Notes: generated by a model from the sequence alone, not told the origin. Counted from the stretch's first letter, positions 39,034 to 59,959 are shown. The stretch is DNA of 64,000 nucleotides from Bacilli bacterium (GCA_017511375.1 JAFWKJ010000009.1:3407-67406), one strand, 5' to 3'. A program made the numbers and translations.

Positions 39034-41562
39034 ATGGCATCAACATATACTAATTGCGACAAAAAAGAATTAATTGCTCACATTATGAATTCAAGATATT
39101 TTGGAGTAGAAAATATAGAAGAAATATTACAAAATCCAAATACGGATAGAGAAGTATTTTCTTATCTAGTGAAGTATACTTTTGGGAAAGAAAACATTTT
39201 ATTCTTATTACAATCCCCATATCTTAATAGTGAATTCTTTAGTGAGATATGTATTCGTAGAATTGATGACCCAACCATCATACCAGATTTATTAGAAAAC
39301 CCATATCTAACACAGGAATTATATGAAAAAATTCTTGCGAGAAGACCAAGCAACATGGAAGACTTATTATTAAATTCTAGATTTGCTAATGAACATACCT
39401 GTATGGTGTTGATGGAAAACAGAGTAGGTTCTGGTGTAACGAACGATGTAATATTAAAAGTAATAAGAAGTCCTCATTTTACTATTAATGTATTTAATAA
39501 ATATTTAAATAACATATATGGAAATGATGAATTATTATTCGAAGCATTAAAAAAACGTGTAGCAACTCCAGAACTAATTACAAAAATATTAGATCGATGT
39601 ATCAAATACCCTAGTACCTATATAAAATCGGTTCATTATATTTTTGAAAATTATCAATGTGATTATAAATATTTAAAAACTTATATTCAATTAGATGATG
39701 CGAATATGGATTATTTGATATCTAGTGGTGTAGCAGATATAGATACTATAAAAAAACTATTAGAAGATGGAAATGATAAAATTGCCATTAGAGTTATTAA
39801 TAGTGGTATCATGACAGAAGAAATATTACTACAAATCATTAATAGAGATTATACAAAAACCCCTTATAGTACAGTAGATGCAAATAATAAAATTTATAGA
39901 GAGATATTAAAAGATCAAAATTTAAGTGAAAAAGTATTGTGTGCCATATTAGATAAAAAACCATCGAATACTATATTAGATTTGATAGCACAACATCCAT
40001 CAGCTGGAACAGATACAAAAGCATCTATTATTATCAATAAGCAGGCTCTAACAGAAGCAGATTTAGATACCTTATTTGCTCTTCCAGGATTAACGGAAGA
40101 ACACTTAAATGAATTGATTCAAAAACAAGCAAGCGAAATGGTGTTTAAAAGAGTAATGGATTCTCCTTTCATTAGTCAAAAACTATATCGCCAAATCCTA
40201 GCTAATTTTATAAAGGTAAATAATGCAAATTATATATCGGGGAAATCATTTAGTAGAGGGGTAAATATAGAATTTCTCATGGAATTAATCGATAGAGATT
40301 TAGATGAAAATAACTTAGATTATCTACTCGCAAATGTATGTGGAGATTATACGGTTGTAAAAAAAGTATTACATCATCCATCCGCAGGATTAGATATTTG
40401 TAAGAGAGCCCATATCTTATCTGATAGAATGGAAGAAAGTAAGAGAAATGAAATTGTAGAATTGGCATCTAAATTAAAACACAAAATAATATCTGAAACA
40501 TTTGAAATTGAAGAAGAAGAGGATGTTACAGATATATTAAGACTAAATGTAGAAGATGGAATGAGTACCATGTTATGGGGACCATCAGGAGTAGGAAAAT
40601 CAAGTCGTGTATTTGAAATAGATCCTACAGCTACCTTGCTAATCTTGAAAAATGGGATGTTACCAGAAGAAGTAATTGGTGGAAAAGAACCCAATGGACA
40701 ACCAGGAGAAATATATCCACCTCATTGGTATGTAGTTTTATGTGAAAAATGTAGAAGAGAACCAAATAGAAAACATATCTTGTTTATCGATGAATTTACA
40801 AATGTAAATGATACCATTAAGAATCTTGCATGGGAAATTGTTGGAAATAGATTGGTAAATGGACATGAAGAATGGCCCTTACCAGAAAACTGTTCTTTAG
40901 TAGTGGCAGGAAATAGACCAGAAGAATCATCAGCTGTACGTATCGATGCATCAGGGGGAGTCATGCCAGCACCTCTCCACAATAGAATTGATTCTATGAT
41001 AGAAATACAATTTAATGTAGATGAATGGCAAAAATGGGCACTCGAGACAGATCCTACAACGGGACGTCTTAGAATTCATCCCATTGTATTATCCTTCTGT
41101 GCTGCGCATGCGGATAAAGTAATGTTTACCCAATTTAATCCAGAAGATGTAACGCAACCATTCTTGACTCCAAGAAAGTGGGAACAATTATCAGCTGCCA
41201 TCTATAGAGCTGAAGAACGTGGAGCAAATCACCATGTAAGTTATGCAAGAATTAGAAGTATGCTAGGAAATACGCCTATTTGCAATGCCTTTATTGAACA
41301 TTATGAGAGATTACCAATTGATATGGATAAGATTGTAATGGGTGAGTATACGGAAGAAGATTTCCCATCATTAGAAGATAAAATGTATGCACTAGGTATT
41401 ATTATTGCACAATATAATGGAGATCAAGAGACAATAGAATCTTTTATTCTAGAATGTTTAGGAGATGAATTCTTATCTGTCTACAATAATATGCGAAATG
41501 AGAGAAAGGCCGTATTAGAAGCAACCGATACAAATGTATCTATGAATGGAGGCAAGAAATAA
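39034..41562 (+). CDS. AAA+ ATPase (MoxR/AAA_5-like) fused to a ~480-aa N-terminal array of LRV/HEAT-like repeats
   Basis: Walker A LWGPSGVGKSS, Walker B ILFIDEFTNV, and sensor/arginine region VVAGNRPEE..APLHNR. The N-terminus has about 12 repeats of the form L.(N/S)P(Y/H/F).....(L/F)(Y/F)..IL. Confidence 0.8.
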   Translation: MASTYTNCDKKELIAHIMNSRYFGVENIEEILQNPNTDREVFSYLVKYTFGKENILFLLQSPYLNSEFFSEICIRRIDDPTIIPDLLENPYLTQELYEKILARRPSNMEDLLLNSRFANEHTCMVLMENRVGSGVTNDVILKVIRSPHFTINVFNKYLNNIYGNDELLFEALKKRVATPELITKILDRCIKYPSTYIKSVHYIFENYQCDYKYLKTYIQLDDANMDYLISSGVADIDTIKKLLEDGNDKIAIRVINSGIMTEEILLQIINRDYTKTPYSTVDANNKIYREILKDQNLSEKVLCAILDKKPSNTILDLIAQHPSAGTDTKASIIINKQALTEADLDTLFALPGLTEEHLNELIQKQASEMVFKRVMDSPFISQKLYRQILANFIKVNNANYISGKSFSRGVNIEFLMELIDRDLDENNLDYLLANVCGDYTVVKKVLHHPSAGLDICKRAHILSDRMEESKRNEIVELASKLKHKIISETFEIEEEEDVTDILRLNVEDGMSTMLWGPSGVGKSSRVFEIDPTATLLILKNGMLPEEVIGGKEPNGQPGEIYPPHWYVVLCEKCRREPNRKHILFIDEFTNVNDTIKNLAWEIVGNRLVNGHEEWPLPENCSLVVAGNRPEESSAVRIDASGGVMPAPLHNRIDSMIEIQFNVDEWQKWALETDPTTGRLRIHPIVLSFCAAHADKVMFTQFNPEDVTQPFLTPRKWEQLSAAIYRAEERGANHHVSYARIRSMLGNTPICNAFIEHYERLPIDMDKIVMGEYTEEDFPSLEDKMYALGIIIAQYNGDQETIESFILECLGDEFLSVYNNMRNERKAVLEATDTNVSMNGGKK

Positions 41563-41960
41563 TGGAAAATAATGAAAGAGAAAAAATTGCTGCCATCAAA
41601 GAATGCTTAATTGAATATGTAGGACCTATCTATATTTGTGGAGAAATATTTGATTTAAACGCAGATAGTTTAACAATTATTCATGCAGATATGCCAAAAG
41701 AAGAATTAATTATTTTAAATAATCATTATCCTGAATGGATAAAAAGAGTAATCAATAATGAAAATAAGAAGAATGTATTATTGATAAAAGATTTTGATAA
41801 AATCTCATTAGAAGATCAAAAACTATTTGTAGATATTATTTGTAAAAACAGAGTATCTAGTGAGTTATTACCTGAGAACTTAAAGATTATGATTAATTCT
41901 AATGAAAGATGTTCCTTAATCCCTGAGATAAGGGAAGTAATACAGTATTTTGAAGTATAG
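41562..41960 (+). CDS. Small protein of unknown function, middle gene of the AAA/VWA module
   Basis: 132 aa. Its ATG directly abuts the stop codon (TAA) of the AAA gene. Confidence 0.45.
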   Translation: MENNEREKIAAIKECLIEYVGPIYICGEIFDLNADSLTIIHADMPKEELIILNNHYPEWIKRVINNENKKNVLLIKDFDKISLEDQKLFVDIICKNRVSSELLPENLKIMINSNERCSLIPEIREVIQYFEV

Positions 41961-41968
41961 GTGATAAT

Positions 41969-43486
41969 ATGTTTAAACAAAGTGATTTAGACAAAGTAAA
42001 AAGATCTGTTCTTCGTAAATATGATATTGCGGCAGGAGTTGCTTTAGATGGAATTGAAATAAGATTAAGTGATCAGTGCGAAACAGCTTGTGTAGTAGGA
42101 CAGATGGATGCGAAAGGGGTTCTACAAGTAAAAGAAATATTGGTAAATCCTACTTTCTTTGAAAAACTTACTTTCGCAGAACGTGTATTTGTACTAGCAC
42201 ATGAAACTTTTCATATTGCCTTAAGACATTTTGCTCGTTCCATGGAAATGCCTGAAAAGGATGCCATGAGAAAGTATAAAGAGTATTGCGAAAAAGAAAC
42301 TGATGAGGCAAAAAGACAGTTTATGAAAGCGCAATATTTAAATCGTTATCATGAGATTTGGAATATTGCAACCGATGCTTGTATTAATGCCTTCTTGAAA
42401 AAAGATGGTTTGTCTTTTCCAGAAAATGTTATGGATCCAAAAACAGGAAAGAAAATGACATTTGTGGATATGAAAGAAGGCTTATATCAAAGTGCTGAAA
42501 AAATATATAAATATCTTGTTCAAAAAGAAGAACAAAAATGGAATCAGCCACAAGAACAACATTCAAATCAACCAGCTAATTCTAGTAGTGAATCCAACTC
42601 ATCAAATAGCGGTTCTCAATCTGGAACGACATCGATTGATGATGTATTATCAAAAGATTATGTAGGAATTGATTCTCATGAACAATGGAGTGGAGACGAG
42701 AATAATTCATCAAAAAGTACTTTTGAAGAAGATTCTGAAGAGACAAAAGAAGATACAAGTGAGGGAGATTTATTTGAGCAAATAGAAAAAGCAAGAAAAA
42801 AAGATAACTCCAAAAAAGAATCTGTATCAGACACCTTATCAAGAATTCGCGAAGAAGCAGGAAATCTAGATTTTGAAAAAGCAAAACCAATTATTTCATG
42901 GAAAACGTTATTAGTAGGATATTTAGAAAAAACGGAAGAAGTTTGGGGAAAAAGAAGAGCATCAAGATATAATCCAAACGCCAGAATAGAAGAAAGAACT
43001 TTTGAGAAACTTCCGAATGTAGAAGTGATTCTAGATACGTCTGGCTCTATTTCCTCCACACTCTTAAAAGGTTTCTTATTACAACTAGTACCAATATTTC
43101 AAACCTTATATGGGGAAGAAGTATCCATAAAAGTAGGGTGTTTTGGTTCATTCTTTAGTGGGTTTACTCCTATAAGAACCATGCAAGATATAAAAAACTA
43201 TCAACCAGTAAATGGAGGAGGAACTAATTTTGAATTAGCAGCCACTTCTTTCACTCCTGATCCGGGAAGAACCACAACAAAAATAGTATTTACAGATGGA
43301 GGAATGGGAATTCCACAAAAAACAAAAGTAGATAATATTATATGGATCGTATTTGGAAATCAAGTCCTATTTCAACCTGTCAGTGGAAGAGTAATTAGAG
43401 TTTCAGATAAAGACTTTGATAGTATGATGAAAGAAGGACAAAACTTTATAGCAGAAGACGAGTCTTCTATAGGACGACATAGATAA
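41969..43486 (+). CDS. Putative metallopeptidase (HExxH, DUF2201_N-like) fused to a VWA-like domain
   Basis: LAHETFHIALRH HExxH motif. Ser/Glu-rich linker. C-terminal VWA-like domain with MIDAS-type ILDTSGSIS. Confidence 0.75.
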   Translation: MFKQSDLDKVKRSVLRKYDIAAGVALDGIEIRLSDQCETACVVGQMDAKGVLQVKEILVNPTFFEKLTFAERVFVLAHETFHIALRHFARSMEMPEKDAMRKYKEYCEKETDEAKRQFMKAQYLNRYHEIWNIATDACINAFLKKDGLSFPENVMDPKTGKKMTFVDMKEGLYQSAEKIYKYLVQKEEQKWNQPQEQHSNQPANSSSESNSSNSGSQSGTTSIDDVLSKDYVGIDSHEQWSGDENNSSKSTFEEDSEETKEDTSEGDLFEQIEKARKKDNSKKESVSDTLSRIREEAGNLDFEKAKPIISWKTLLVGYLEKTEEVWGKRRASRYNPNARIEERTFEKLPNVEVILDTSGSISSTLLKGFLLQLVPIFQTLYGEEVSIKVGCFGSFFSGFTPIRTMQDIKNYQPVNGGGTNFELAATSFTPDPGRTTTKIVFTDGGMGIPQKTKVDNIIWIVFGNQVLFQPVSGRVIRVSDKDFDSMMKEGQNFIAEDESSIGRHR

Positions 43487-48249: not shown

Positions 48250-48258
48250 TGTTATAAT
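48250..48258 (+). promoter_or_regulatory. Extended -10 promoter (TGTTATAAT) for the Dam-class methylase
   Basis: TG at 48250-48251 and TATAAT at 48253-48258, 27 nt upstream of the ATG with RBS TAGGAGGA between them. Confidence 0.45.
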
Positions 48259-48284: not shown

Positions 48285-49163
48285 ATGAAAAAAGAAGTAA
48301 TTAGCTCACCAATACGTTGGGCCGGTTCAAAGAAAAAACTCCTAAATGAAATGTTGGAAGAAACATTTAAAAAACATCAAAAAAACTATGTTGAATGCTT
48401 TTTAGGATCAGCAGTTGTATTATTAAATGTTATTAACAATAATGAGGATTTGAATTATGAAAATTATTATGTAAATGATATAAACTCCAATATTATAAAT
48501 TTTTATATTTTACTACAAAAGAATCCAGAATATCTAATCACTAAAATCAAAGAATTAAGCGATAAATATAATAACTTGTCATTAAATGAAAAATCCAACT
48601 TGTTTTATGAAATCAGGAATGCATTTAATTGCTCAGATAATTCAGATGAAAAATCTATATATTTTTATTTTTTAATGAAAACAGGATTTAATGGTGTGTA
48701 TAGAGAAAACAGCAAAGGACAATTTAATGTACCATTTGGCAGAAAAGAAAAAATAATCATAGATGAAAATTATCTAATAAAAATTTCTACAATGATAAAA
48801 AAAGTGAAATTTTATAATTTGCCATTTGAAGATTTTTTGGATAAGATGAGTAAAAAAGGAATACTAGATGATGCGTTTGTATATTGTGATCCACCATATC
48901 TACCTGATGATCTACTTGTTTATCAAAAACAAATGCTATATACAAAAGACTCATTCAATCACGAATTGTTTTTCTCAACTTTAAATGAAATGGATATAAA
49001 GAATGTTATGATTTCAATGTCAGAATCTAAAATTGCAGACCAGATATATAACAAACAACCATTTAATAAAATTGATGTCAGAAATATTATAAGAGTTATA
49101 AATCCAAAAAAGCTTTTCTCTTCAAAGGAAGTTGCATATATAAATTATCAAATTGAAGAGTAA
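48285..49163 (+). CDS. D12-class (Dam-family) N6-adenine DNA methyltransferase, no adjacent cognate endonuclease evident
   Basis: N-terminal SPIRWAGSKKKLL, motif I CFLGSAVV, and motif IV YCDPPYLP (DPPY). Confidence 0.85.
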   Translation: MKKEVISSPIRWAGSKKKLLNEMLEETFKKHQKNYVECFLGSAVVLLNVINNNEDLNYENYYVNDINSNIINFYILLQKNPEYLITKIKELSDKYNNLSLNEKSNLFYEIRNAFNCSDNSDEKSIYFYFLMKTGFNGVYRENSKGQFNVPFGRKEKIIIDENYLIKISTMIKKVKFYNLPFEDFLDKMSKKGILDDAFVYCDPPYLPDDLLVYQKQMLYTKDSFNHELFFSTLNEMDIKNVMISMSESKIADQIYNKQPFNKIDVRNIIRVINPKKLFSSKEVAYINYQIEE

Positions 49164-49207
49164 AAAGCTCTTTTTTTTGTAAAGAAATGATAATAATTAC
49201 AAAATAT

Positions 49208-49237
49208 TTGACAAATATTGTGAAAATGTGATATATT
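49208..49237 (+). promoter_or_regulatory. Promoter of the 5-gene operon (TTGACA, 18-nt spacer with TGn, TATATT)
   Basis: TTGACA at 49208-49213, TG at 49229-49230, TATATT at 49232-49237. The tracked start 49228 lies inside this promoter. Confidence 0.5.
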
Positions 49238-49260
49238 TTTATTGGAAAGAGGCGATATCA

Positions 49261-49482
49261 ATGAGTGTAAAAAGTGATAATTTTAAAAGAATTTCCGATA
49301 ATCGTGTAAAGAAAATTAATGATCTGATATCAAAACTTCACAACTTAATAAATCCGTCATTCTACGAGTATAACGATAAAGAGATAGACGAAATGTTTGA
49401 TAATATTCAGAATGAGTTAGACAGGCAAAAGGAATTGTTTTTAAAAGAAAGAAATAAACCTAGAAAGAAGAAGGAACTATGA
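49261..49482 (+). CDS. 73-aa helical micro-protein with basic tail, first gene of the candidate system
   Basis: ATG follows AAAGAGG. Its stop overlaps the next start (ATGA at 49479-49482). Confidence 0.5.
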   Translation: MSVKSDNFKRISDNRVKKINDLISKLHNLINPSFYEYNDKEIDEMFDNIQNELDRQKELFLKERNKPRKKKEL

Positions 49483-52046
49483 GAGCATGTGATATTATAA
49501 AAAATAAATTGCCAAGTACTTCTTCAATCAACAAAGATAATCGCTATATAAAATATTTGATGATTTCTTCTATTGCTAATAAGAAGAACACCTTAGAATT
49601 AATATCTAAACATATCGCTTTAAATATAGATGACAATGCATTTGTTGATGAAGATGCACTGAGTTTCTATTTGAATATCAACTTTGATTCAAATGGAAAG
49701 GAAGAATATATTTTATCCAAACAAGAAGAAGACTTATATTTACTATTTCATCAGTTGATAAAATCAATAAATGAAATGGCTGATGTCAGCAATGAAAATT
49801 TAATATCATTAATAATGGAGAAAATAGATACACATTATGAAGAAGCACTTGCCTATAATTTTTTATATTTTAAGAACAATTGTAATGAGAAATATTCAGA
49901 CTTGTATTTACGTTCAATATATTTTGATTTATTGAAAAATTATTATAATTATAAAACTCAATATGAAAACATAAGAGCAAAGTTTAACATAATAGAAAAA
50001 GATGAAATGTTTAATGAGTTATATGACGATATAAAAGATAATCCATTATTATCTATGCTGGTTACATATTCAAATACGTTTGAAAAGAAATGGTTAAAAA
50101 GATTTAATATTGTAACTTTAAAAGACCTTTTAAATAACAATTACAAGGTGTTATCTTTGATTTTTTGTATTGAAACAGATAGCTATTTAAGAGTACTTAA
50201 TGACATAGATGCAGAAAAAATAGATAATATCTTTAATCGTTTGACGAATTATTATAATGAATTAGATGATAAATATCTATTTATTTATAACTCAAGAATA
50301 AAGCTGGTTGGAACAGATAGAGTATTGACACTTCAAGAAGTTGGGAATGAAATAGGACTAACACGTGAAAGAGTCAGACAAATAGAAGCAAAAATTCACA
50401 AAAAAATTAATTATATTAGAATTAACTTCGATGATTTAATTCCAATTTTTAGATACGTTGACAAAAAAGGGATATTATATATATCTAATGAAAAATTCAT
50501 TAAAATACTTAATAATGACATAATTGCTAAATTAATAAAAATAAAAATTAGTAATGCCAACAATATAAAAATACATTTTTCTGAAGAATATGATACTTTT
50601 TATTTTGAAGAAAAAAGTATAGAAGAAATTGTTGATGAATTTAAAAAAAGTCTTCCATCTGTAATAACTGAAGAGAATTATAGGAATACCACCTATATTG
50701 AAAAGATGATAATTGACAATGACTATAAATTATCAAAGAAAGGATTCTATATTAAGAAACACTACAACGAAAGTGATACATATTTAGAATTATTAGACTT
50801 ATATTTTCCGAATGGATACAGAATAAATAACGATGATGATTATAATTTCCTTATGGATAAATATAAAGAAATGTATAAAACCGAAGAGGTTCCTACAAGT
50901 AGTAGATATATAGCAACAAAATTGGATAGAAATGAAGATTATTGTATTATTGATAGAGGTTTATATCTGCGTAGAGATAAATGCCCAGAATTACCTAATA
51001 TATTAAAGAATAAGATTATTAATTATATTAAGAATAGTAATCTAGTTGTATACTATAGTGAAATCTATGAGTTGTTTAAATTTGAATTAAACATGAAAAA
51101 TATAAATAATCAATATTTGCTTAAGGGTCTTATTGACCATGAGTTGGATAGTAAATTTCATACTAGTAGAGACTTTATAACTTATGGAACTCAACAGAAT
51201 AAATGGGATGCAATTATAAACTATATGAGAAGTTTCAACAATATTTTTACATTAGACGATTTATATAATGAATTTCCAGGAGTTTCATACACAATATTTC
51301 AAGGTATTATTTCTAGTGAAAGTGATAAAGATTTACTGATTTTATATAACAAGAGATTTATATATGTAAATAAGACAAACATTGAAGTTATTAAGATTGA
51401 ATTAAAGAATAAAATAGAAGAATTATTTACAACTTTAAATACAAATTATCTAACATCGCATAAAATATTTGCAAAAATTGCTTTGTCTAATAATAATTTC
51501 CTATCAAAAGTGAATTTTGAAGTGGATGGATTTAATCTTTATTCAATTATTAGAAGCTTATTTCCAAACGATTACTATTATAGAAGACCAATTATAAGTA
51601 AATTAGATGCCGGAATAATAACTAATATTATTGCTCTTCGCCAATATTTAATAACGTTAGATGAATTTGACATCAAAAAAGTTGAAATGTATGTAACAAA
51701 AATGGGATTATCTAATAAATGGTATTATGAATACTATACCCTATGTGAATATATGAGTGAGGATTTTGTTTTAGTAGACAAAAAGACAATGATAAAAAAA
51801 GAAAAGCTTGATGTTGATGAATACACTCTAAGCCAGATAGAAAGTAGTCTAGATGCTTTATTAGAAAGGTATGATGAAATTAAATTAAATGAATTTGATG
51901 CATATTTTGTATTTCCGGATATAAAAGGGTATGAGTGGAATGAATATCTATTAATAGGTTTAATAAATGCATATATGCTTGATAAATACGAAATAAAAAA
52001 AGATAATATTAATTTCTATATAAGGAGGATTAACAATGAACTATAA
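49479..52046 (+). CDS. 855-aa protein with an internal sigma-70 region-4-like HTH, otherwise unknown
   Basis: LTLQEVGNEIGLTRERVRQIEAKIHKKI (nt ~50321-50408) matches the region 4.2 consensus. I see no P-loop or nuclease motif. Confidence 0.6.
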   Translation: MRACDIIKNKLPSTSSINKDNRYIKYLMISSIANKKNTLELISKHIALNIDDNAFVDEDALSFYLNINFDSNGKEEYILSKQEEDLYLLFHQLIKSINEMADVSNENLISLIMEKIDTHYEEALAYNFLYFKNNCNEKYSDLYLRSIYFDLLKNYYNYKTQYENIRAKFNIIEKDEMFNELYDDIKDNPLLSMLVTYSNTFEKKWLKRFNIVTLKDLLNNNYKVLSLIFCIETDSYLRVLNDIDAEKIDNIFNRLTNYYNELDDKYLFIYNSRIKLVGTDRVLTLQEVGNEIGLTRERVRQIEAKIHKKINYIRINFDDLIPIFRYVDKKGILYISNEKFIKILNNDIIAKLIKIKISNANNIKIHFSEEYDTFYFEEKSIEEIVDEFKKSLPSVITEENYRNTTYIEKMIIDNDYKLSKKGFYIKKHYNESDTYLELLDLYFPNGYRINNDDDYNFLMDKYKEMYKTEEVPTSSRYIATKLDRNEDYCIIDRGLYLRRDKCPELPNILKNKIINYIKNSNLVVYYSEIYELFKFELNMKNINNQYLLKGLIDHELDSKFHTSRDFITYGTQQNKWDAIINYMRSFNNIFTLDDLYNEFPGVSYTIFQGIISSESDKDLLILYNKRFIYVNKTNIEVIKIELKNKIEELFTTLNTNYLTSHKIFAKIALSNNNFLSKVNFEVDGFNLYSIIRSLFPNDYYYRRPIISKLDAGIITNIIALRQYLITLDEFDIKKVEMYVTKMGLSNKWYYEYYTLCEYMSEDFVLVDKKTMIKKEKLDVDEYTLSQIESSLDALLERYDEIKLNEFDAYFVFPDIKGYEWNEYLLIGLINAYMLDKYEIKKDNINFYIRRINNEL

Positions 52047-53934
52047 TATATGGAGATTTCCAAGTAATAATTTTACAAGTGAGAGTGGATTAAACAACTC
52101 AGATATGGAAACATTTAAGAGAGATCCTATGGCGTCTTTAGCAAGAGAAATATGTCAAAACTCACTAGACGCTAGAAGAGCGGAATGCAATAAGGCAATC
52201 GTAGAATTTGAGGTATTTACTATAAATAATACTGATATTCCAGGATACTCAAGACTAAAAGAAGAAATAGAATCATGTCACGATTACAGAAAGCATCCTA
52301 ATGATAAAGCGGAATTAGCGGGGATGTTAAATTCAATCAGCAATGAAAAAATAAAATGTTTGAGAATTAGTGATAAGAACACGACAGGATTAGGTGATGT
52401 TTTTGGTTCAACAGAAGATAGTAAATTTTATTTACTAACTAAGGGAAGTGGATTAACTTCAAAAATTGGAGGAAAAGGTGGTTCAAAAGGTGTAGGTAAG
52501 TTTGCATGCTTTGTAGCAAGTTCTTTTAATACGGTTTTTTATTCAACTAAGAATGAAGCAGGAGAAGAAGGTTTCCTAGGTATAAGTAAATTATGTTCTA
52601 CTATTTTTAAAGAATCTCCTGATCAGAGAACAGTCGGAATCGGTTATTACAGTAGTGATGAAAGAAATTTACCTATTGCAGGACAATTGAATCTTCAACC
52701 AAACTATACAAGAACAGAATTTGGAACAGATATATACGTATTGGGTTTTAAAGGAGTAGATGATTGGAAAAAGAAAATCATTACTATGATTTTAGACAGT
52801 TTTATGGTTGCTATAGTATTTGATGAACTAGAAGTTAGAGTTGACGACATTTTATTAAATAAAGAAACAGTTGGGAAATTAATTAATAAAGATTACATTA
52901 CAACAAGTAATCAATTAATAAATATAAAAGCACAATATGAACTGTTAACAGACGATGACATTTATTCAGAAAATTTAAAATTAGATGATTTTGGCGAAAT
53001 CAAAGTTTTATTAAAAGCCTATAAAAAAGAAGAAGCTGAAGAAGCAACAAAAAATTGTATTATGGTTAGATATCCACACATGAAGATTAGGACATTAAGA
53101 AAAATATCATCAGTACCATGTTCGGCTTTATGCATTATAGAAGACAGTGATTTTAACAACAGATTAATAAATGTAGAAAATCCACAACATACAGATTGGG
53201 AAACAAATAGACTTTCTGGTGCATTAAAAGCAGAAATGGACTATCAAATAAATACAATGGAAGATAGTATCCTTAACTATGTAGCTGATACTTTATCAAT
53301 GGGGCTAGAAGAAGAAAGTGATATTGAAGGAGCTGGAGAATTTTTACCTTCAGCAAATAATGATGGTGATTTCGGTGAAAACAAGCCTGCCATTATTGAA
53401 AAACCAATAGTAATTCCAAAAACAAGAGCAAAAATAAAAGACACAAATCCAGCAACATCTGCAGATGATGGAAGCGAAGCAGATATTCCAGATGTTGGTG
53501 ATTTTGGTGATGATGGAGATGACACTTCGCAACCTGAAGGGCATAATCAAGGAACTGGTGGCGGAGTACATGAAACAGATAAAAAATCAGGGTACAAAGA
53601 AGGAGACAAAGAAATTTTAAGAACAGCACCATTAAAAGGGATGAAATATGTGCCAATTATCCCTAACAAGTCTTCAGGAGAGCTGATTATATCTTTTAAA
53701 TCACTATATGATGAAAATGATTGCCAACTATTATTAAGTTATAAAGATGAATCAAATCAGAAATATAAAGTTAATATATCAAGTGCTACTATTAATGGTG
53801 CTACAGTTGATGTTAACGACGGTATTATTGATGGGTTTAACTTGGAAATAGGAAAAGAATATACAGTAAAAGCTCAAACCGATGTGTATGATTATTATAG
53901 AATTGAGGTGGCTATATATGCGAATAAGAAATAA
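52036..53934 (+). CDS. GHKL (MORC/Hsp90/MutL-type) ATPase-domain protein with acidic linker and beta-rich C-terminal domain
   Basis: N-box REICQNSLDA (ExxxNxxDA), G1 ISDKNTTGLGD, G2 GGSKGVGKFA. RBS AAGGAGG and an 11-nt overlap with the upstream gene. Asp/Gly-rich linker DIPDVGDFGDDGDD. Confidence 0.65.
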   Translation: MNYNIWRFPSNNFTSESGLNNSDMETFKRDPMASLAREICQNSLDARRAECNKAIVEFEVFTINNTDIPGYSRLKEEIESCHDYRKHPNDKAELAGMLNSISNEKIKCLRISDKNTTGLGDVFGSTEDSKFYLLTKGSGLTSKIGGKGGSKGVGKFACFVASSFNTVFYSTKNEAGEEGFLGISKLCSTIFKESPDQRTVGIGYYSSDERNLPIAGQLNLQPNYTRTEFGTDIYVLGFKGVDDWKKKIITMILDSFMVAIVFDELEVRVDDILLNKETVGKLINKDYITTSNQLINIKAQYELLTDDDIYSENLKLDDFGEIKVLLKAYKKEEAEEATKNCIMVRYPHMKIRTLRKISSVPCSALCIIEDSDFNNRLINVENPQHTDWETNRLSGALKAEMDYQINTMEDSILNYVADTLSMGLEEESDIEGAGEFLPSANNDGDFGENKPAIIEKPIVIPKTRAKIKDTNPATSADDGSEADIPDVGDFGDDGDDTSQPEGHNQGTGGGVHETDKKSGYKEGDKEILRTAPLKGMKYVPIIPNKSSGELIISFKSLYDENDCQLLLSYKDESNQKYKVNISSATINGATVDVNDGIIDGFNLEIGKEYTVKAQTDVYDYYRIEVAIYANKK

Positions 53935-54811
53935 CTTGTTTCCATATCCAGTATTGAATTCCAAAGAAACAATTTCATCATTTGTTAACTCACTTTTTAG
54001 ATTTGATTATGAAGAATTTCAAGATGACAATTATTATTATTTGAAAGATATAAAAATTGATTTAAGTGATGAAAAAATTCTGGAATTAATGGAACAGGGA
54101 AAAGCGGAAGCAAAAATAATTGTTGAATGCTCTAGAACCATATATAGAAATATTTTTTCAGTAGATTTAAATACAACAACAATAAAAATCCCTATCTCAG
54201 AATTAAGAGGACCAGTAGAAATATCTTGTTTTATCTACGCAAAGGAGAATATAAAAGACTATTATAGCAATAACTTCAATAAGATATATGGAGAATATAG
54301 ATTTGATATAGATAAATTTGATATTTTAGCTGTAGATGATGGATATAATACTAAAATAGATTTTGATGAGCAAAAAGATAATAAAGTATCATCAATCTTT
54401 GTAGTAGTAAGTAGTGGTGATCCAAATTCAAAAACAATGGATTTTGATGTTAAACGAAAGAATATTAAGATTACTTTGCCTAATAAAGAATATGGATTTT
54501 ATACAAATATGAAAAATGATACAAATTATCAAAATGTGTTTTTTGCAATCATCGCTATACCAGCTTTAACATATGCTTTATCAAAAGCGCAAGAAGAAGA
54601 TTTTGAAACAGCAAGAAATACATATGATTGGCTTGAATCAGTAATAAATGCTTATGAAAAAATATATGAAAGAAATATTAAAGATGATTGGGGAAAACTA
54701 GAAGTTGATGTTCCACAAAGGTTATTAAATAATGCAATTACACAATCTATTGATGATTTCTACTTCTTAATGATAGACAGATATAGAAAAAGAGGTGAAG
54801 GTGATGAATAA
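53918..54811 (+). CDS. 297-aa protein of unknown function (fourth gene of the operon)
   Basis: ATG 53918 follows GAGGTGG and overlaps the upstream gene by 17 nt. N-terminus is MRIRNNLFPYPVLNS. Confidence 0.5.
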   Translation: MRIRNNLFPYPVLNSKETISSFVNSLFRFDYEEFQDDNYYYLKDIKIDLSDEKILELMEQGKAEAKIIVECSRTIYRNIFSVDLNTTTIKIPISELRGPVEISCFIYAKENIKDYYSNNFNKIYGEYRFDIDKFDILAVDDGYNTKIDFDEQKDNKVSSIFVVVSSGDPNSKTMDFDVKRKNIKITLPNKEYGFYTNMKNDTNYQNVFFAIIAIPALTYALSKAQEEDFETARNTYDWLESVINAYEKIYERNIKDDWGKLEVDVPQRLLNNAITQSIDDFYFLMIDRYRKRGEGDE

Positions 54812-55598
54812 TTTGATAAATGTTATGTATGTAACTGATCAATTGTTAGAAAATTTGCGTGAAAATGCAGTGGAAGTTGGAGAATTAATTAAAAGTCACT
54901 CAGATACTTTATGGCTAAAGAAATATGCCTCTGGCCAAATGTTTGAAGAAAAAAAATTTACAATACCAGATTTCAAATTACACCTCAGTGACGATGGAAA
55001 TTATGATAAAGTTGATTACATGAACTGTATAACTCTATATGAATCACTTAATAAACTACCAAGATATGTATTAACAAATGAAAATTTTTGGGTTTGGCTT
55101 GAATTAACGTCATGCTATGAAGTTTGTAGACAGGCTATGCCAATAAAATCAAAATCTACATTTAAAGATCACTGGCTATTTAGTGGAGGAAACAGAAGAG
55201 GTATATTCTTCGGGGTTTTATCACGATGCTATTTTAGAGTAGAATTAACTGTAGATGAATCTTTACCAGATAAATATGAGTTAACAAAATTTGTTTGTGA
55301 AAAAAATGAAAGATTTAGAACATTAACATGGAGAAGTATTTCCAGTGAAAAACATGTTGTTTTAGGCGTTATAAAAGCTGAAAAGGATTTATACGATGAG
55401 TACAATCAAAATCCGGAAACAGCTGAAATGTTCCGTAAGGCAGAAGCAGGTAAAAATGGAGAAAATTTATATACAGAGTTTAGTAAGCAATTATCATTAT
55501 TTGGAAGTGTAAGATTACTTGATGCACTTTCAGAAAATGAAATATATGAATTTTCAAAGAATAAAATGGTGGAATTGATAAAAAGATTTAACAGTTAA
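54804..55598 (+). CDS. 264-aa protein of unknown function (fifth gene of the operon)
   Basis: ATG 54804 follows AGAGGTGA and overlaps the upstream stop (ATGAATAA). Contains Trp-rich blocks ENFWVWLELT and LSRCYFRVELT. Confidence 0.5.
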   Translation: MNNLINVMYVTDQLLENLRENAVEVGELIKSHSDTLWLKKYASGQMFEEKKFTIPDFKLHLSDDGNYDKVDYMNCITLYESLNKLPRYVLTNENFWVWLELTSCYEVCRQAMPIKSKSTFKDHWLFSGGNRRGIFFGVLSRCYFRVELTVDESLPDKYELTKFVCEKNERFRTLTWRSISSEKHVVLGVIKAEKDLYDEYNQNPETAEMFRKAEAGKNGENLYTEFSKQLSLFGSVRLLDALSENEIYEFSKNKMVELIKRFNS

Positions 55599-55626
55599 AA
55601 AAGATGCATTTTTATGCATCTTTTTC
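55597..55626. terminator. Bidirectional terminator closing the operon and the convergent m5C methylase gene
   Basis: Perfect 9-bp stem AAGATGCAT/ATGCATCTT (55601-55609 / 55614-55622) with flanking A- and T-runs. Confidence 0.7.
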
Positions 55627-56856
55627 ATTTTCTATAATCTTTTCCAATTCTATACCAATTTTTTCTATTACACCGACAACTAAAGCATTCCCCATCATAA
55701 AGTATCTTCTCTTGTCTGACATTCCTGTATTAGTCCAGTCGTCAGGGAATCCATTTATTCGTTCACATTCTTTCGGAGTTAATAATCGAGGCCTTTTGGT
55801 TTTATAATCTTCAATTACATGAGTAGAACGACTTATGCCGCTTTCACTTGTAAGCATTGTTCTTGCCGGAGCATCTAAATTGTCTGGGAATGGCATAGCT
55901 CCTTCCGTATAATAATATGGCTCACCTGTTGGCTTTGTTCTAGGAATCCTCTTTCCACCTTTTAAATATTTAAACTTTTCAATTTGATTGTCGCTCAAAA
56001 AGTACTTTTCATCTATCACATCTTCTTCGCGAATATTACGAAGAGGAAATATTAGATTATAATCAGCCTTTACTTTAACCGTGTAAATTCCACCTTTTTT
56101 CATTATTCCTGCATTATAAAACTGGCATTTAAACATATTACTTACTTCTATTAAATCTTTATAATCAGCAACGCTTGATTCTGATATCTCGCTATAGGAT
56201 TCTTTTATTGGAAATTGTTGAACAAACATCCCCTTAGAGAAAATAACGTCATAGTCAGATACCTTTTGCATTTGTTTATAATAGTTAGTAGATTTATGGT
56301 ATGCGAACATATAAGTTCTTCTACGTTTTTGTGGCAAACCATATTCCCCAGCATTTATTACTCTCCATTGAACATCGTATCCATTTTCATAGAAACTTCT
56401 TAGAATCATTCCGAAATCTCTACCTCTTTGTTTAGCTGGAGAAAGTAATAATCTATCAACATTCTCTAATAAAACAAATGGAGGTTTTTTTATTGCAAGA
56501 GTTTCTTCAATTGCCCACCAAAGGACTCCTTTTTTGCCTTCAATTCCTTTACTGGTTGATAAGGATTGCGCAACAGAATAATCCTGACATGGAAATCCTC
56601 CAACTAATAGTGTATGATCTGGAATATCATGTTTATCAACCTCAAATATATCTATATTAGAAACATCTTTATCTCCAAATCTTAAAGCATAGCAGTCAAA
56701 AGCCTCTTGAGATTTAGTAGCTGGTTCCCACTGATTAGCCCATAAACATTTCCATTTACCGTTTTCTATTGTTTTTCCATCTTTCAATTCTACATGATTA
56801 AGTCCGCAACGGAACCCCCCAACTCCTGCAAATAATTCAACCAAAGTTTTTTTCAT
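55612..56856 (-). CDS. DNA (cytosine-5)-methyltransferase
   Basis: Motif I ELFAGVGGF, motif IV GGFPCQDYS, ENV, QKRRR, and motif X GNALVV. The start is moved to ATG 56856 after AGGAGG. Confidence 0.9.
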   Translation of the reverse strand: MKKTLVELFAGVGGFRCGLNHVELKDGKTIENGKWKCLWANQWEPATKSQEAFDCYALRFGDKDVSNIDIFEVDKHDIPDHTLLVGGFPCQDYSVAQSLSTSKGIEGKKGVLWWAIEETLAIKKPPFVLLENVDRLLLSPAKQRGRDFGMILRSFYENGYDVQWRVINAGEYGLPQKRRRTYMFAYHKSTNYYKQMQKVSDYDVIFSKGMFVQQFPIKESYSEISESSVADYKDLIEVSNMFKCQFYNAGIMKKGGIYTVKVKADYNLIFPLRNIREEDVIDEKYFLSDNQIEKFKYLKGGKRIPRTKPTGEPYYYTEGAMPFPDNLDAPARTMLTSESGISRSTHVIEDYKTKRPRLLTPKECERINGFPDDWTNTGMSDKRRYFMMGNALVVGVIEKIGIELEKIIENEKDA

Positions 56857-56982
56857 AATGAAACCTCCTGACATTTGTTTTAATACTATAAATATATTAT
56901 AATTTATTTGAGATAAAAGATCAACTTACAATTTTATTTTAACCTATTTTTTATGCTAAAACAAGATCGAAAGGAGAAAAAA

Positions 56983-58362
56983 ATGAAAAAAGGTAGATTA
57001 TACAATAGACAAGAGATTGAAGTTATATCAAAATCTGCTATTGGAAAGACAATGAATGATATTCTAAAAGAAGAATTAGTGTCAATCGGTGATATAGACA
57101 ATAAAGGTGGATTAGGACAGTTGATTGAACAATATTTATTTGGAATACAAACAAACAATGAATCTGAACCTGATTTTATGCCTGCTGGTATAGAATTAAA
57201 AGTAACTCCATACAAGAAAATAAAAGGGGGTAAATTATCAGCTAAAGAAAGACTTGTATTAAATATTATTAATTACATGGAAGAATGGAAAAATGATTTT
57301 AGACATAGTCACTTTTGGATGAAAAATAATACAATACAATTATTATGGTATTTATGGGAACCAAATAAGGATTTTAAAGATTTTAAAATCACTCACGAAA
57401 AATTAATGGAACTAGTTCAAAGTGAAGACATAAAGCAAATAGAAAATGACTGGAATTATATTGTAAGCAAAATTAAAGAAGGAAAGGCACATGAACTGTC
57501 AGAAGCAGATACAATGTATTTGGGTACATGTACAAAGGGAGTCAACTCAAGTTCAACGAGAGAGCAACCATTTAGTGATATAAAAGCAATGCAACGAGCT
57601 TTTTGCTTTAAAAATTCATATATGACACAAATGGTAAGAAAAATAATAGGGGATTATAGTGATGTTGAAAAAGTTCTAAAAGGAACAAATAATACATTCA
57701 ACGAATATGTCAATAACGTTATTGAAAAATATAAAGGTAAAACTCAAAAAGAATTAATGAAAGAATTCAGTATAGATTCTAAAGCTAAGAATATTAATAG
57801 TATGCTTATAAGTAGAATGTTTAATGTCACAAGTAAACTAGCAGATACCGAGGAATTTCAAAAAGCAAACATTATTCCTAAGACAATAAGAATCGAAGAA
57901 AGTGGAAGAATCAAAGAATCAATTTCATTTCCTTCTTTTAAATTTAATGAAATAATTGAACAAGAATGGGAAACTTGTGATTTAAGAGAAGAATTAGAAA
58001 CAACTAAATATATGTTCTTTGTATTTAAAAAGGAAAAAGGTGAATATGTTTTTAAGGGTATCAAATTATGGAATATGCCAGAAACTGACATTGAAACATC
58101 TGTAATGGAAATGTGGAAAAAAACATATAATACAATTTTAAATGGTAATATAGTTAGATACATAAAAGATGGTAAAAGAAAAACAAATTTTGTTGGAATG
58201 AGTGAGAATGAAGTATGTCATGTTCGTCCTCACGGAAGAGATTCAAGAGATACATTTAAGTTACCAGTAGCTGATAAATTAACAGGTGCTACTGAATATA
58301 CTAAACAATGTTTTTGGATTAACAGCAACTATATAAAAGGAATTTTTGAAGAGTTTAATTAG
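56983..58362 (+). CDS. Sau3AI/MutH-family type II restriction endonuclease
   Basis: GGLGQLIEQYLFG..ESEPDFMPAGIELKVTP carries the MutH/Sau3AI D..E-x-K catalytic block. Two-domain length. Divergent from the m5C methylase. ATG follows AAAGGAG. Confidence 0.8.
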   Translation: MKKGRLYNRQEIEVISKSAIGKTMNDILKEELVSIGDIDNKGGLGQLIEQYLFGIQTNNESEPDFMPAGIELKVTPYKKIKGGKLSAKERLVLNIINYMEEWKNDFRHSHFWMKNNTIQLLWYLWEPNKDFKDFKITHEKLMELVQSEDIKQIENDWNYIVSKIKEGKAHELSEADTMYLGTCTKGVNSSSTREQPFSDIKAMQRAFCFKNSYMTQMVRKIIGDYSDVEKVLKGTNNTFNEYVNNVIEKYKGKTQKELMKEFSIDSKAKNINSMLISRMFNVTSKLADTEEFQKANIIPKTIRIEESGRIKESISFPSFKFNEIIEQEWETCDLREELETTKYMFFVFKKEKGEYVFKGIKLWNMPETDIETSVMEMWKKTYNTILNGNIVRYIKDGKRKTNFVGMSENEVCHVRPHGRDSRDTFKLPVADKLTGATEYTKQCFWINSNYIKGIFEEFN

Positions 58363-58371
58363 GAGGTTTTA

Positions 58372-59625
58372 TTGGTGAATAATAAAGTTACTTTTGAAGA
58401 TGTAATTAGTGGTAAAAGCAAAAAATTGATTATTGATTGTATATATGAAAATAAGCAGCCAAATAAAGATATGAGTTGTAGAGTATTACCAAAACTAATG
58501 AAGGTTCAGAATACTGGAGGATTTAGACCGATAGGTGAATATAAAAATAATTTCGCAGTTAAATATGTCGTATTATATTCGACTGGAGAAGATATTTATT
58601 GGCAAGATGATTTAGATGAAGAACTAGGCTTGTTTATTTATTATGGAGATAATCAAAGAGCAGGAAGAGACATTTTGGATACAAAACTTGGAGGGAATCT
58701 AATATTACAAAAATCATTTGAATTGGCTTGTTCTGGTAATCTGGATGATAGAAAGAAGATTCCACCATTCTTTTTGTTTCAAAAAGATGAAAATGCAAAT
58801 GTAAAATTTTCTGGACTGTTAGTTCCTGGATACAAAAACATAAATGAAAAAGAATGGTTGACTGCATTATGGGCAAAGAGAAATGAAGGTGGACGTTTTC
58901 AAAATTATAAAGCAATGTTCACAGTTTTAGATACTGAAGATGGATCAATAGCAAATCCAAATAATGCCTCAATTGATTTGCAATGGATAGATGATTTGTT
59001 AAATGGAAAAGGATACGATAGTGAACATGCACCAAAAGCATGGAAAAATTGGATTGATAAGAGTGTATATAAACCTTTAACTGTTAATGTTGATTCCAGA
59101 ATTAGAACAAAAGAAGAACAATTACCTAAGGAAAAAGAAAGGTTGGAAATGTTGCAATATATTCATGATTATTTCTATAATAAAGAAAGAAAATCAGATG
59201 CAACAAATTTTGAACCTTTTGCAATAGCATTAACTACGTTAGCAGATACTAATATTATAAGTTGTGATAATACTAGACCATCCAAAGATGGTGGCAGAGA
59301 TGGTGTTGGTGAATATAGAATTATGAATGGATTAAATCAAGCCCTAAAAACAGTTTTTGCTGTGGAAGCTAAATGTTATGATTTAAACAATTCTGCAGGT
59401 GTAAAAGAAACCTCAAGGCTAATTTCTAGAATCAGGCATAGACAATTTGGAGTTTTTGTTACAACATCATACGTTGATATCCAGGCATATAAAGAAATAA
59501 TAGAAGATGAACACCCCATTGCTATTATTGCAGGTGCAGATATCATAGATATTTTATATCAAAATGAAATAACCGATTTGCATAAACTAAAAGAATATTT
59601 AAATAATAACTTTCCAAAAGAATAA
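58372..59625 (+). CDS. Candidate modification-dependent (type IV) restriction enzyme: N-terminal SRA-like domain plus C-terminal Mrr-like PD-(D/E)XK domain
   Basis: N-terminal KYVVLYSTGEDIYWQDDLDEELGLFIYYGDNQRAGRD..TKLGGNLILQKS parallels the SRA/YDG core (Y.G.GG.....Q.L..gN.aL). C-terminal SKDGGRDGVGEY..FAVEAKCY..FGVFVTTSY parallels Mrr_cat (DgGiDg..vQaK..gi.itts.f). Confidence 0.55.
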   Translation: MVNNKVTFEDVISGKSKKLIIDCIYENKQPNKDMSCRVLPKLMKVQNTGGFRPIGEYKNNFAVKYVVLYSTGEDIYWQDDLDEELGLFIYYGDNQRAGRDILDTKLGGNLILQKSFELACSGNLDDRKKIPPFFLFQKDENANVKFSGLLVPGYKNINEKEWLTALWAKRNEGGRFQNYKAMFTVLDTEDGSIANPNNASIDLQWIDDLLNGKGYDSEHAPKAWKNWIDKSVYKPLTVNVDSRIRTKEEQLPKEKERLEMLQYIHDYFYNKERKSDATNFEPFAIALTTLADTNIISCDNTRPSKDGGRDGVGEYRIMNGLNQALKTVFAVEAKCYDLNNSAGVKETSRLISRIRHRQFGVFVTTSYVDIQAYKEIIEDEHPIAIIAGADIIDILYQNEITDLHKLKEYLNNNFPKE

Positions 59626-59885: not shown

Positions 59886-59959
59886 TGGCAGGGGATGAGA
59901 GAATCGAACTCCCAACAGTGGTTTTGGAGACCATTATTATACCATTTAACTAATCCCCT
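59886..59959 (-). tRNA. trnW: tRNA-Trp (anticodon CCA), CCA end encoded
   Basis: The reverse complement folds by hand into a cloverleaf: acceptor AGGGGAT/ATCCCCT, D arm GTTA-AATGGTA-TAAT, anticodon arm ATGGT-CTCCAAA-ACCAC, T arm GGGAG-TTCGATT-CTCTC, discriminator G, CCA. Confidence 0.9.

Follow-up and report, generated by a model that had tools for sequence, protein, structure and literature searches.

A candidate defence operon with a PDC-M33 core beside a Dam-class methylase gene in a Bacilli bacterium

In a stretch of 64,000 nucleotides from a Bacilli bacterium (GCA_017511375.1 JAFWKJ010000009.1:3407-67406), which we refer to in its full length as the window, a gene encoding a DNA adenine methylase of the Dam class is followed by five co-oriented genes, here termed g1 to g5, that an earlier note had singled out as a translationally coupled operon and as part of a candidate undescribed defence system. 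The features of the region are compiled in Table 1. The open reading frames (ORFs), their four overlaps, the promoters of the operon and of the Dam gene and the weak hairpin behind the latter were all recovered from ORF coordinates, sequence and a promoter scan at the places where the note had put them. Consecutive genes share an ATGA at the g1/g2 junction (49479-49482) and 11, 17 and 8 nt at the g2/g3, g3/g4 and g4/g5 junctions, respectively, and the start codons of g4 and g5 agree with aligned homologues that begin at the same residues. An AGGAGG ribosome-binding site is located between the Dam promoter and the ATG of the Dam gene at 48285, and the hairpin with its T-run behind this gene is conserved in aligned related loci. 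The operon promoter is the top-scoring site in the region between 47.8 and 56 kb (11 out of 12, with an upstream TG), and the total of promoter-like sites in this AT-rich interval, 63 found versus 58.6 expected, is not above chance. We thus consider this promoter credible not because of the scan counts but because its -35 element, spacing and TG-extended -10 element are conserved in distant relatives, with TTGACA, a spacer of 17-18 nt and TGnGATAT kept in seven other loci, six of which encode proteins that are only about 45% identical. Terminator-like sites are rare, with only two found in the same interval and none further inside the operon. The closing terminator, which had been described as a perfect 9-bp hairpin, is present with a longer stem that includes its A/T runs, is bidirectional and extends over the stop codon of dcm, which is transcribed towards the operon. 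The region is a real co-oriented five-gene operon with overlapping genes and a conserved promoter.

Table 1. Positions of the operon, its expression signals and neighbouring genes in the window.
Feature	Position	Strand	Product	Remarks
MTase_II gene	30645-32444	-
Dam-gene extended -10 promoter TGTTATAAT	48250-48258	+		read in sequence
Dam gene	48285-49163	+	292 aa
Weak AAGAG/CTCTT 5-bp hairpin and T-run behind Dam	49156-49178	+		leaky terminator; sequence
Operon promoter TTGACA, 18 nt, TG-extended TATATT	49208-49237	+		promoter scan
g1	49261-49482	+	73 aa	start is an ATG inside an 84-aa ORF
g2	49479-52046	+	855 aa
g3 (PDC-M33A)	52036-53934	+	632 aa
g4 (PDC-M33B)	53918-54811	+	297 aa
g5 (PDC-M33C)	54804-55598	+	264 aa
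Bidirectional intrinsic terminator	55598-55625	both		12-pair stem including A/T runs, loop of 4, T tail
C5-cytosine methylase (dcm)	55612-56874	-		Pfam DNA_methylase 4.5e-63; PADLOC MTase_II 1.9e-161
MutH-domain restriction endonuclease	56953-58362	+	469 aa	Pfam MutH 1.6e-29; PADLOC REase_II 2.3e-107
AspBHI-like methyl-directed (Type IV-like) restriction enzyme	58372-59625			RE_AspBHI_N and Mrr_cat; PADLOC mREase_II 3e-128
tRNA-Trp	59886-59959	-

The last three genes of the operon match the three families of a single PADLOC model. g3 aligns with PDC-M33A (E 9.6e-137) over residues 1-629 on profile positions 1-625 of 627, g4 with PDC-M33B (E 3e-60) over residues 1-282 on positions 1-280 of 289, and g5 with PDC-M33C (PDLC04586, E 1.1e-34). 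Judged by profile matches, adjacency, orientation and order, g3-g4-g5 is a member of PDC-M33, which is a candidate defence system of three families, cassette CAS_00129, listed with number 98 (Payne et al., 2024, bioRxiv 10.1101/2024.01.29.577857). The same source introduces 145 such PDCs as 'guilt-by-embedding' phage defence candidates, which were selected from genes in BREX, DISARM or Type I restriction-modification (R-M) loci and explicitly left without test, and the searchable text and supplement contain no functional note on the PDC-M33 families (Payne et al., 2024). The attribute 'undescribed' was thus overstated, because the core of the operon is already catalogued.

Relatives of the operon were collected in a scan of one genome per species, with tblastn searches and clustering used to define gene content. 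The resulting 78 loci originate from Bacilli, Clostridia, Erysipelotrichaceae, Negativicutes (with Veillonella and Succiniclasticum listed among the loci), Mollicutes, Anaeroplasmataceae and Ligilactobacillus ruminis, and 40 of them carry enough flanking sequence (termed well-flanked) to serve for all presence counts. The order and adjacency of g3-g4-g5 are fixed in every locus that is long enough to show it, and the distance matrices of their proteins correlate with a Mantel r of 0.975 for g3-g4 and 0.915 for g3-g5. Only these three genes are obligatory, with g1, g2 and Dam each missing in some loci, and they are found in six arrangements. In the first, shared by the window and 14 other loci, Dam precedes g1 to g5 in the same orientation. 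In the second (L015, L021-25, L061, L070), Dam follows g1 to g5 as last gene. In the third (L026-30, L032, L066, L073), a gene for a restriction endonuclease (REase) of domain composition DUF6996-DUF6997-DUF7226 separates Dam from g1-g3-g4-g5, and in the fourth (L031, L039, L042-44, L048, L056, L072, L076) Dam is transcribed divergently from g1-g3-g4-g5. The fifth consists of g1 to g5 without Dam (L035-37, L040/41, L057, L067), where L035 and L040/41 show a Type III-like mod/res or res gene immediately before the module, and the sixth of g3-g4-g5 alone among housekeeping genes in seven loci of Anaeroplasmataceae. In L035 (1831-6899), genes for a TIR-domain protein, a Type III mod and a res directly precede g1-g2-g3-g4-g5, with a gap of 17 nt to the longest g1 ORF, and together these genes give the impression of a composite defence operon of eight genes. 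The neighbours across loci include Sau3AI-type R-M genes, an AspBHI-like enzyme, MmeI, Mrr, TIR, Fic and AbiGI/GII, the latter being neighbours on the Lactococcus lactis plasmid pS127; the earlier note had proposed to look for such a proximity to known defence genes. PDC-M33 relatives are also carried by conjugative lactococcal plasmids, and the system is essentially absent from phages. A phage origin was considered and rejected, as only two partial phage matches were found, 2.9 million viral contigs contributed a single locus and g1, g3, g4 and g5 have no PHROG.

Since g3 shows no significant sequence match in Pfam or the PDB, we turned to its predicted structure, for which an AlphaFold2 (AF2) model was built on an alignment of 52 sequences (predicted local distance difference test, pLDDT, 75.7). 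The model consists of a GHKL (Bergerat-fold) ATPase with transducer at residues 1-423, a disordered acidic Asp/Gly-rich linker at 424-516 and a β-sandwich C-terminal domain at 517-632. In a Foldseek search of the PDB, its top matches are GHKL-plus-transducer ATPases only, namely Topo VI-B (1.5e-8), Hsp90 (1.5e-7), SMCHD1 (2.9e-4) and the N-terminal domain of MutL (4e-4), besides TRAP1 and the Topo IIa ATPase, and the tail at 517-632 shows weak Ig/CBM-like structural matches only. The ATP-binding signature is invariant in the 52 sequences and comprises an N-box (E38, N42, D45), residues D113 and G118, and G148-G154. The G1-like motif reads SDxNTxGL, which is one residue longer than the canonical DxGxG, and the G2 box reads GGSKGxGK. 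Confidence is low at residues 138-153 of the model, where a flexible ATP lid would be expected. The earlier identification of g3 as a GHKL ATPase is thus borne out by its motifs and the Foldseek matches of the model, which at the level of the predicted fold confirms an assignment as GHKL-plus-transducer ATPase of the Topo VI-B/MORC/MutL type. At the sequence level, neither HATPase_c nor HATPase_c_3 of Pfam is matched by the protein of the window, the latter being found below threshold in 6 of the 52 homologues with a best E of 0.022, and sequence and profile searches of the PDB with g3 were empty. At least 1763 relatives of g3 are counted at 90% clustering.

We also noticed an invariant polar cluster at the end of the g3 transducer, which is composed of ENPQHTDWE (residues 381-389, window 53176-53202) and DIEGAG (residues 429-431, 53320-53328). 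Its spacing Q-H-x-x-x-E-x4-(D/E) resembles the endonuclease motif of MutL, DQHA(X)2E(X)4E, and this resemblance may be due to chance or may reflect a metal-binding or catalytic site.

In the AF2 model of g4 (pLDDT 85.4), an all-β N-terminal domain is combined with a C-terminal helical bundle. A nuclease or helicase fold hidden in this 297-residue protein, for which the earlier note had suggested such a search, was not detected, as the model finds no Foldseek match at E<=0.001 in either the PDB or BFVD, and the sequence and profile search of the PDB was equally empty. The alignment of homologues displays an invariant or near-invariant pattern E70 ... D140-D141-G142 ... D154-x-K156, which could constitute a divergent PD-(D/E)xK site, an assignment to which the fold lends no support and which includes residues of low confidence (150-156). 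A Toprim nuclease, suggested by E70 ... DDG and a potential pairing with g3 as in Topo VI, was rejected, with the AF2 model showing neither a Toprim nor another match. The relatives of g4 fall into 2545 representative clusters at 50% identity. In a profile search covering 1.84 billion representatives, the 150 matches listed are all stand-alone proteins and none exceeds about 320 residues, and there are therefore no informative ('Rosetta stone') fusions among them. The third component, g5, belongs to Pfam DUF6339 (E 1.5e-35), a domain found in 27 of 27 homologues, and neither its sequence nor its family profile retrieved anything from the PDB. Its alignment contains no conserved acidic cluster, and the conserved residues are mostly tryptophans and arginines (FWxW, RR, R141), which suggests a role in binding rather than in catalysis.

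Upstream of this core, g1 encodes a basic helical protein that heads the operon. With a column identity that averages 64% across 17 loci, it is better conserved than the other proteins of the set; its relatives in databases number at least 5945, and it has no match in Pfam, PHROG or PADLOC. Of the 40 well-flanked loci, 30 include g1, which accompanies Dam in 25 of 27 cases. On a Succiniclasticum chromosome (L059, 15438-16495, minus strand), a g1 homologue is found not before g3 but at the head of a Dam-DpnA-DpnII operon that is convergent with g3-g4-g5, and g1 is for that reason tied to the methylase side as well. The presence of a sigma-70 region-4 helix-turn-helix (HTH) in g2, on which the earlier note had remarked, is supported by Pfam Sigma70_r4 (E 5.6e-7), which delimits a complete region 4 at about residues 247-312 and is detected in 14 of 14 homologues (best 1.1e-12), and the family profile of g2 finds sigma region 4 only in the PDB (E 1e-15). 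The C-terminal part of about 540 residues is conserved among homologues and shows no match in our searches, and profile-profile comparisons of g1, g4, g5 and the DUF6996-DUF6997-DUF7226 enzyme with g2 reveal no common domain (probability <1%). The gene is found in 19 of the 40 well-flanked loci.

These properties bear on an interpretation of the locus as a regulatory unit, in which g2 would be an alternative sigma or transcription factor, the downstream genes its regulon or signalling partners and g3 a sensor resembling histidine kinases, whose fold is also of the GHKL type. The bona fide sigma region 4 of g2 would agree with such a role, as would AATATT repeats that flank the conserved -35 element and suggest operator sites. 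Regions 2 and 3, in turn, are found neither in the protein of the window nor in its 14 homologues in a scan at E<=1, and with region 4 only, g2 is not a sigma factor. Moreover, about half of the loci do without g2, the structural neighbours of g3 are DNA-clamp GHKL proteins with a transducer and not kinases, and Pfam finds no DHp/HisKA domain in g3. We thus regard a regulatory unit as highly improbable. As for the repeats themselves, most of the aligned loci (the window and L001, L002, L004, L006, L012, L016, L055) display three hexamers AATATT at intervals of about 11 bp that flank and overlap the conserved -35 element, with the window (49180-49240) retaining them only in part; they could be an operator for g1 or for the sigma-region-4 HTH of g2.

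The protein encoded upstream of the operon contains a catalytic DPPY motif and matches Pfam MethyltransfD12 (6.9e-40), PADLOC MTase_II (2.3e-51) and the NCBIfam model TIGR00571 dam with 170.6 bits at a cut-off of 114.85, in line with its earlier description as D12/Dam-class methylase. It is a D12-class N6-adenine DNA methyltransferase that is probably specific for GATC. A gene of the Dam class is located within four genes of the module in 27 of the 40 well-flanked loci, usually with no intervening gene. Four placements are encountered, with Dam ahead of the module, behind it within one operon at a distance of -4 to about 150 nt, in divergent orientation, or separated from it by an REase gene. 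These genes belong to five lineages that are less than 45% identical to each other, and the correlation of their distances with those of g3 (Mantel r 0.72) indicates partial co-inheritance with repeated replacement. The conserved synteny with Dam exceeds by far what mere location in a defence island would account for. Of the four partners and the Dam-class methylase whose retention by the ATPase the earlier note had proposed to test, g4 and g5 are fixed beside g3 and Dam is present in the proportion given above; about half of the loci lack g2, and the Anaeroplasmataceae copies lack g1 and Dam.

The partners on the methylase side vary considerably, with GATC as a recurrent theme among those of Dam. 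DpnA and DpnII accompany Dam in L025, L056 and L059, and Dcm with a MutH-domain Sau3AI-like REase is found in the window, L001 and L065. The 431-residue DUF6996-DUF6997-DUF7226 protein, which contains an invariant D173...E186-A-K188, always stands behind one Dam lineage (L026-L032, L066, L073, L009, L015 and L046; for example L028 8307-9602) and is probably an unnamed family of Dam-partnered Type II restriction enzymes that are possibly specific for GATC. Dam is also not the constant methylase partner that had been envisaged, as some loci follow Type III mod/res, Type I HsdS/HsdM or AlwI-type R-M genes. In loci without Dam, the module is located 17-82 nt behind Type III mod/res genes. Distant homologues of 28% identity sit behind HsdS-HsdM on Ligilactobacillus salivarius megaplasmids and adjoin AlwI and two D12 methylases on L. 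lactis pS127, the recognition site of AlwI being GGATC. In metagenomic contexts, Type III mod/res genes and a large N6_N4 methylase are neighbours. As a separate observation, GATC stands out among 4-bp palindromes as the most depleted one near the module in four groups of loci, the Dam-less Anaeroplasma being one of them, with ratios of observed to expected sites of 0.47-0.61; no depletion is seen in the group with divergent Dam and in the Dam-less group with g1-g2 (0.8-0.9). With CATG also depleted and the counts made without a control genome set, we did not use GATC depletion as evidence for a targeting of this site.

Taken together, we favour, with a probability of roughly 0.45, an interpretation of the region as an extended PDC-M33 that acts as ATP-driven, methylase-coupled and restriction-like module. 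The permanent association of g3 with two fixed, translationally coupled partners implies that g3, g4 and g5 would form one stoichiometric complex. In the proposed mechanism, the neighbouring methylase would mark the DNA of the host, in the window by N6-methyladenine (m6A) in GATC, and it may double as recognition subunit, a role that would account for the range of methylase classes found in this position. The g3 dimer would close around DNA upon ATP binding, as other GHKL clamps do, and together with g4 and g5 would then act on unmarked DNA either by cutting or by clamping and silencing. If it cuts, the complex would use a non-canonical active site, with D140...D154-x-K156 of g4 or ENPQHTDWE/DIEGAG of g3 as candidates. 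In such an assembly, g2 would be an optional add-on whose sigma region 4 may provide contacts to DNA or RNA polymerase for targeting, sensing or autoregulation, and g1 may be a small structural or regulatory subunit. The restriction-like logic follows a proposal made for MORC/paraMORC ATPases in R-M operons (PMC2292703) and has a validated precedent, for nuclease defence under the control of a GHKL ATPase, in VcSduA (PMC12137116). The mechanism of methylation-marked distinction of self and non-self, which the earlier note had also put forward, is an inference and not a finding.

Several observations weigh against this proposal. In Anaeroplasmataceae, g3-g4-g5 stand alone between polC and rsmE/miaB-like genes, with neither a methylase nor g1 within 10 kb, and one further context, for which the downstream flank is cut off, contains no methylase in the 6 kb of its upstream side. 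Several loci provide Dam with an REase of its own (the DUF6996-DUF6997-DUF7226 protein or DpnII), and the adjacency of the module could there be hitch-hiking or 'embedding'. The partner methylases differ in class and sequence specificity, a diversity that fits poorly with a constant reader of a single methylated motif, except if the methylase itself is the recognition subunit. No recognizable nuclease, helicase or other effector domain is encoded in the operon, with g4 lacking a fold match, and in the literature searched we found no phenotype for PDC-M33 and no paper that mentions PDC-M33 or DUF6339.

Part of this evidence would equally fit a defence or abortive infection system that is independent of methylation, where the PDC-M33 core senses and acts alone, and where its proximity to R-M genes reflects 'embedding' or a role as guard of R-M that responds once a phage disables the latter, in the manner of PrrC at EcoprrI. 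In its favour, the definition of PDC-M33 goes back to genes located within BREX, DISARM or Type I R-M systems, its core is alone in Anaeroplasmataceae, complete R-M systems are among its partners and represent Types I, II, IIS and III, and AbiGI/GII are its neighbours on pS127. The five-gene operon of the window also looks as if inserted between Dam and the pair of Dcm and Sau3AI-like REase, because Dam, Dcm and the MutH-domain REase are contiguous in L065. Conversely, Dam stays joined to the module without a consistently recognizable adjacent REase in the arrangement of the window (14 loci and the window) and in the divergent arrangement (nine loci), in some loci it closes the operon, at a gap of -4 to 150 nt, and five separate lineages of it were recruited, which exceeds the expectation from co-residence in islands. 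We consider a methylation-independent system less probable than the methylase-coupled module but a serious rival, with more weight than any of the other alternatives.

A more specific version of the methylase-coupled proposal would be a restriction without canonical nuclease or helicase, in which the g3 clamp, g4 and g5 use whichever adenine methylase is adjacent as subunit for self-marking or recognition and act by a new active site or by ATP-dependent clamping and silencing, and in which the sigma region 4 of g2 would serve, in the five-gene form, as decoy or bait for phage anti-sigma factors of the AsiA/gp67 type or in RNA polymerase docking. Silencing by ATP-dependent clamping is known from eukaryotic MORC and SMCHD1. 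In this detailed form we deem the scenario unlikely.

The module could also serve not immunity but the Dam-directed repair or maintenance of DNA, as a machine comparable to MutL-MutH-Dam or as a clamp in plasmid or chromosome maintenance. Such a function would be in accordance with the MutL-like layout of g3, in which a GHKL ATPase with transducer, a long disordered linker and a small C-terminal domain succeed each other, with the linkage to a GATC methylase, with the bare copies of Anaeroplasma among housekeeping genes and with the occasional recruitment of such ATPases to repair (Iyer et al., PMC2292703). It is opposed by the lack of a MutS partner, by a g3 tail that is a predicted β-sandwich instead of the dimerization and endonuclease domain of MutL, by the patchy distribution and the variable neighbourhoods, in which R-M, TIR, Abi and Mrr genes abound, by the carriage on conjugative plasmids and by the listing of the system as defence candidate in PADLOC. 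We judge a role in repair to be very unlikely, and even when combined with the regulatory interpretation, the two account for a small share of the probability.

Downstream of the operon and outside of it, the genes for Dcm and the MutH-domain REase form a divergently arranged Sau3AI-type GATC R-M pair, which is part of the genomic context. With Dam upstream and Dcm downstream, the host would modify GATC twice, as m6A and as 5-methylcytosine. The earlier description of Dam as an orphan is accurate insofar as no recognizable REase paired with it is encoded in the operon, the nearby MutH-domain REase pairing with Dcm, and incomplete for the surroundings, where this R-M pair and the AspBHI-like enzyme follow immediately. 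Upstream in the window (39034-43486), a tight co-oriented trio encodes an 842-residue protein that finds no match in Pfam or PADLOC, a 132-aa ORF and a DUF2201 metallopeptidase/VWA-like protein, and may be another uncharacterized system.

Relatives of PDC-M33 are numerous in gut Firmicutes, Mollicutes and Negativicutes and extend to dairy lactococcal plasmids. If the methylase link is functional, they would represent a methylation-based immune system without a helicase or known nuclease, and this would bear on how MORC-type GHKL clamps read epigenetic marks, which is relevant to eukaryotic gene silencing. Cultured carriers, including Ligilactobacillus ruminis DSM 20403, L. lactis with pS127 and the L. 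salivarius megaplasmids, make the system directly testable.

In comparison with known systems, the six proteins show no match to BREX, DISARM, Dnd-Ssp, Druantia, Zorya, Hma or MADS profiles of PADLOC at E<=0.1, in agreement with what the earlier note had concluded from gene composition for most of these systems. At this threshold, the matches found are MTase_II/oMTase for Dam, PDC-M33A-C, the HTH of MzaA and one chance match to GajB. Likewise, Pfam, NCBIfam and PADLOC detect neither a helicase nor a Walker-A NTPase nor any named nuclease domain in g1-g5, as the note had also stated. Membership in MADS or MANTIS was ruled out by their different gene content, a classical Type II R-M system of Dam and cognate REase was rejected with a D12 methylase present and an adjacent paired REase not found, and a Dam-MutL-MutH repair unit was dismissed given the β-sandwich tail of g3, the absence of MutS and a g4 that is not MutH-like. 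The MZA system (MzaA-E, Gao_Mza) contains a MutL-like GHKL ATPase, and its large MzaA resembles g2 in carrying a sigma-70 region-4 HTH. The similarity is, however, confined to this HTH of about 35 residues (27.9 bits versus a cut-off of 800; PADLOC 5.1e-5), and MzaB-E find no PADLOC match at E<=0.1 among the six proteins. With Topo VI-B and the N-terminal module of MutL, the predicted structure of g3 1-423 shares the Bergerat fold, a flexible ATP lid and a transducer that ends in a long helix, but the sequence identity is about 10%, and neither a Toprim/5Y-CAP partner nor the C-terminal domain of MutL is present. PrrC in the EcoprrI Type I R-M locus offers the parallel of a defence gene that is attached to and co-oriented with R-M genes, as formulated in the guard model. 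It is, unlike any protein described here, an ABC-ATPase anticodon nuclease, and many of our loci would offer only an orphan methylase to 'guard'.

The closest conceptual relatives are found among GHKL ATPases of prokaryotic conflict systems. In R-M-like operons, MORC/paraMORC ATPases with a GHKL and S5/transducer architecture are encoded together with DNA methylases in mobile neighbourhoods of the defence type, and an ATP-driven looping or clamping of DNA has been proposed as their role, with occasional recruitment to repair (Iyer, Abhiman & Aravind, 2008, PMC2292703). These operons differ from ours in that they typically include a superfamily 2 helicase and a recognizable REase, HNH or HKD nuclease, whereas g3 is accompanied by two proteins that lack functional annotation, with g4 in addition matching no solved fold. 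Shedu type I-D, with VcSduA (paraMORC3) as its representative, also employs a GHKL ATPase in a defence system, for which protection against phage and its requirement for ATP hydrolysis were established experimentally (PMC12137116). VcSduA is a single polypeptide, in which the GHKL ATPase is fused to a PD-(D/E)xK nuclease of the DUF4263 family and which has no link to a methylase, whereas DUF4263 is absent from the locus described here and an effector, if there is any, would act in trans. The PADLOC model of PDC-M33, finally, is composed of three genes and comprises neither g1 nor the sigma-region-4 protein nor the recurrent Dam/R-M linkage. The five-gene form, the fold assignments, g1, the sigma-region-4 accessory protein and the quantified linkage to methylases are absent from this model and, as far as we found, from the literature searched. 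To the catalogued system, our analysis thus adds the predicted fold of its ATPase, a g4 without counterpart among solved structures, two additional conserved components and a linkage to adenine methylases that has been re-invented repeatedly.

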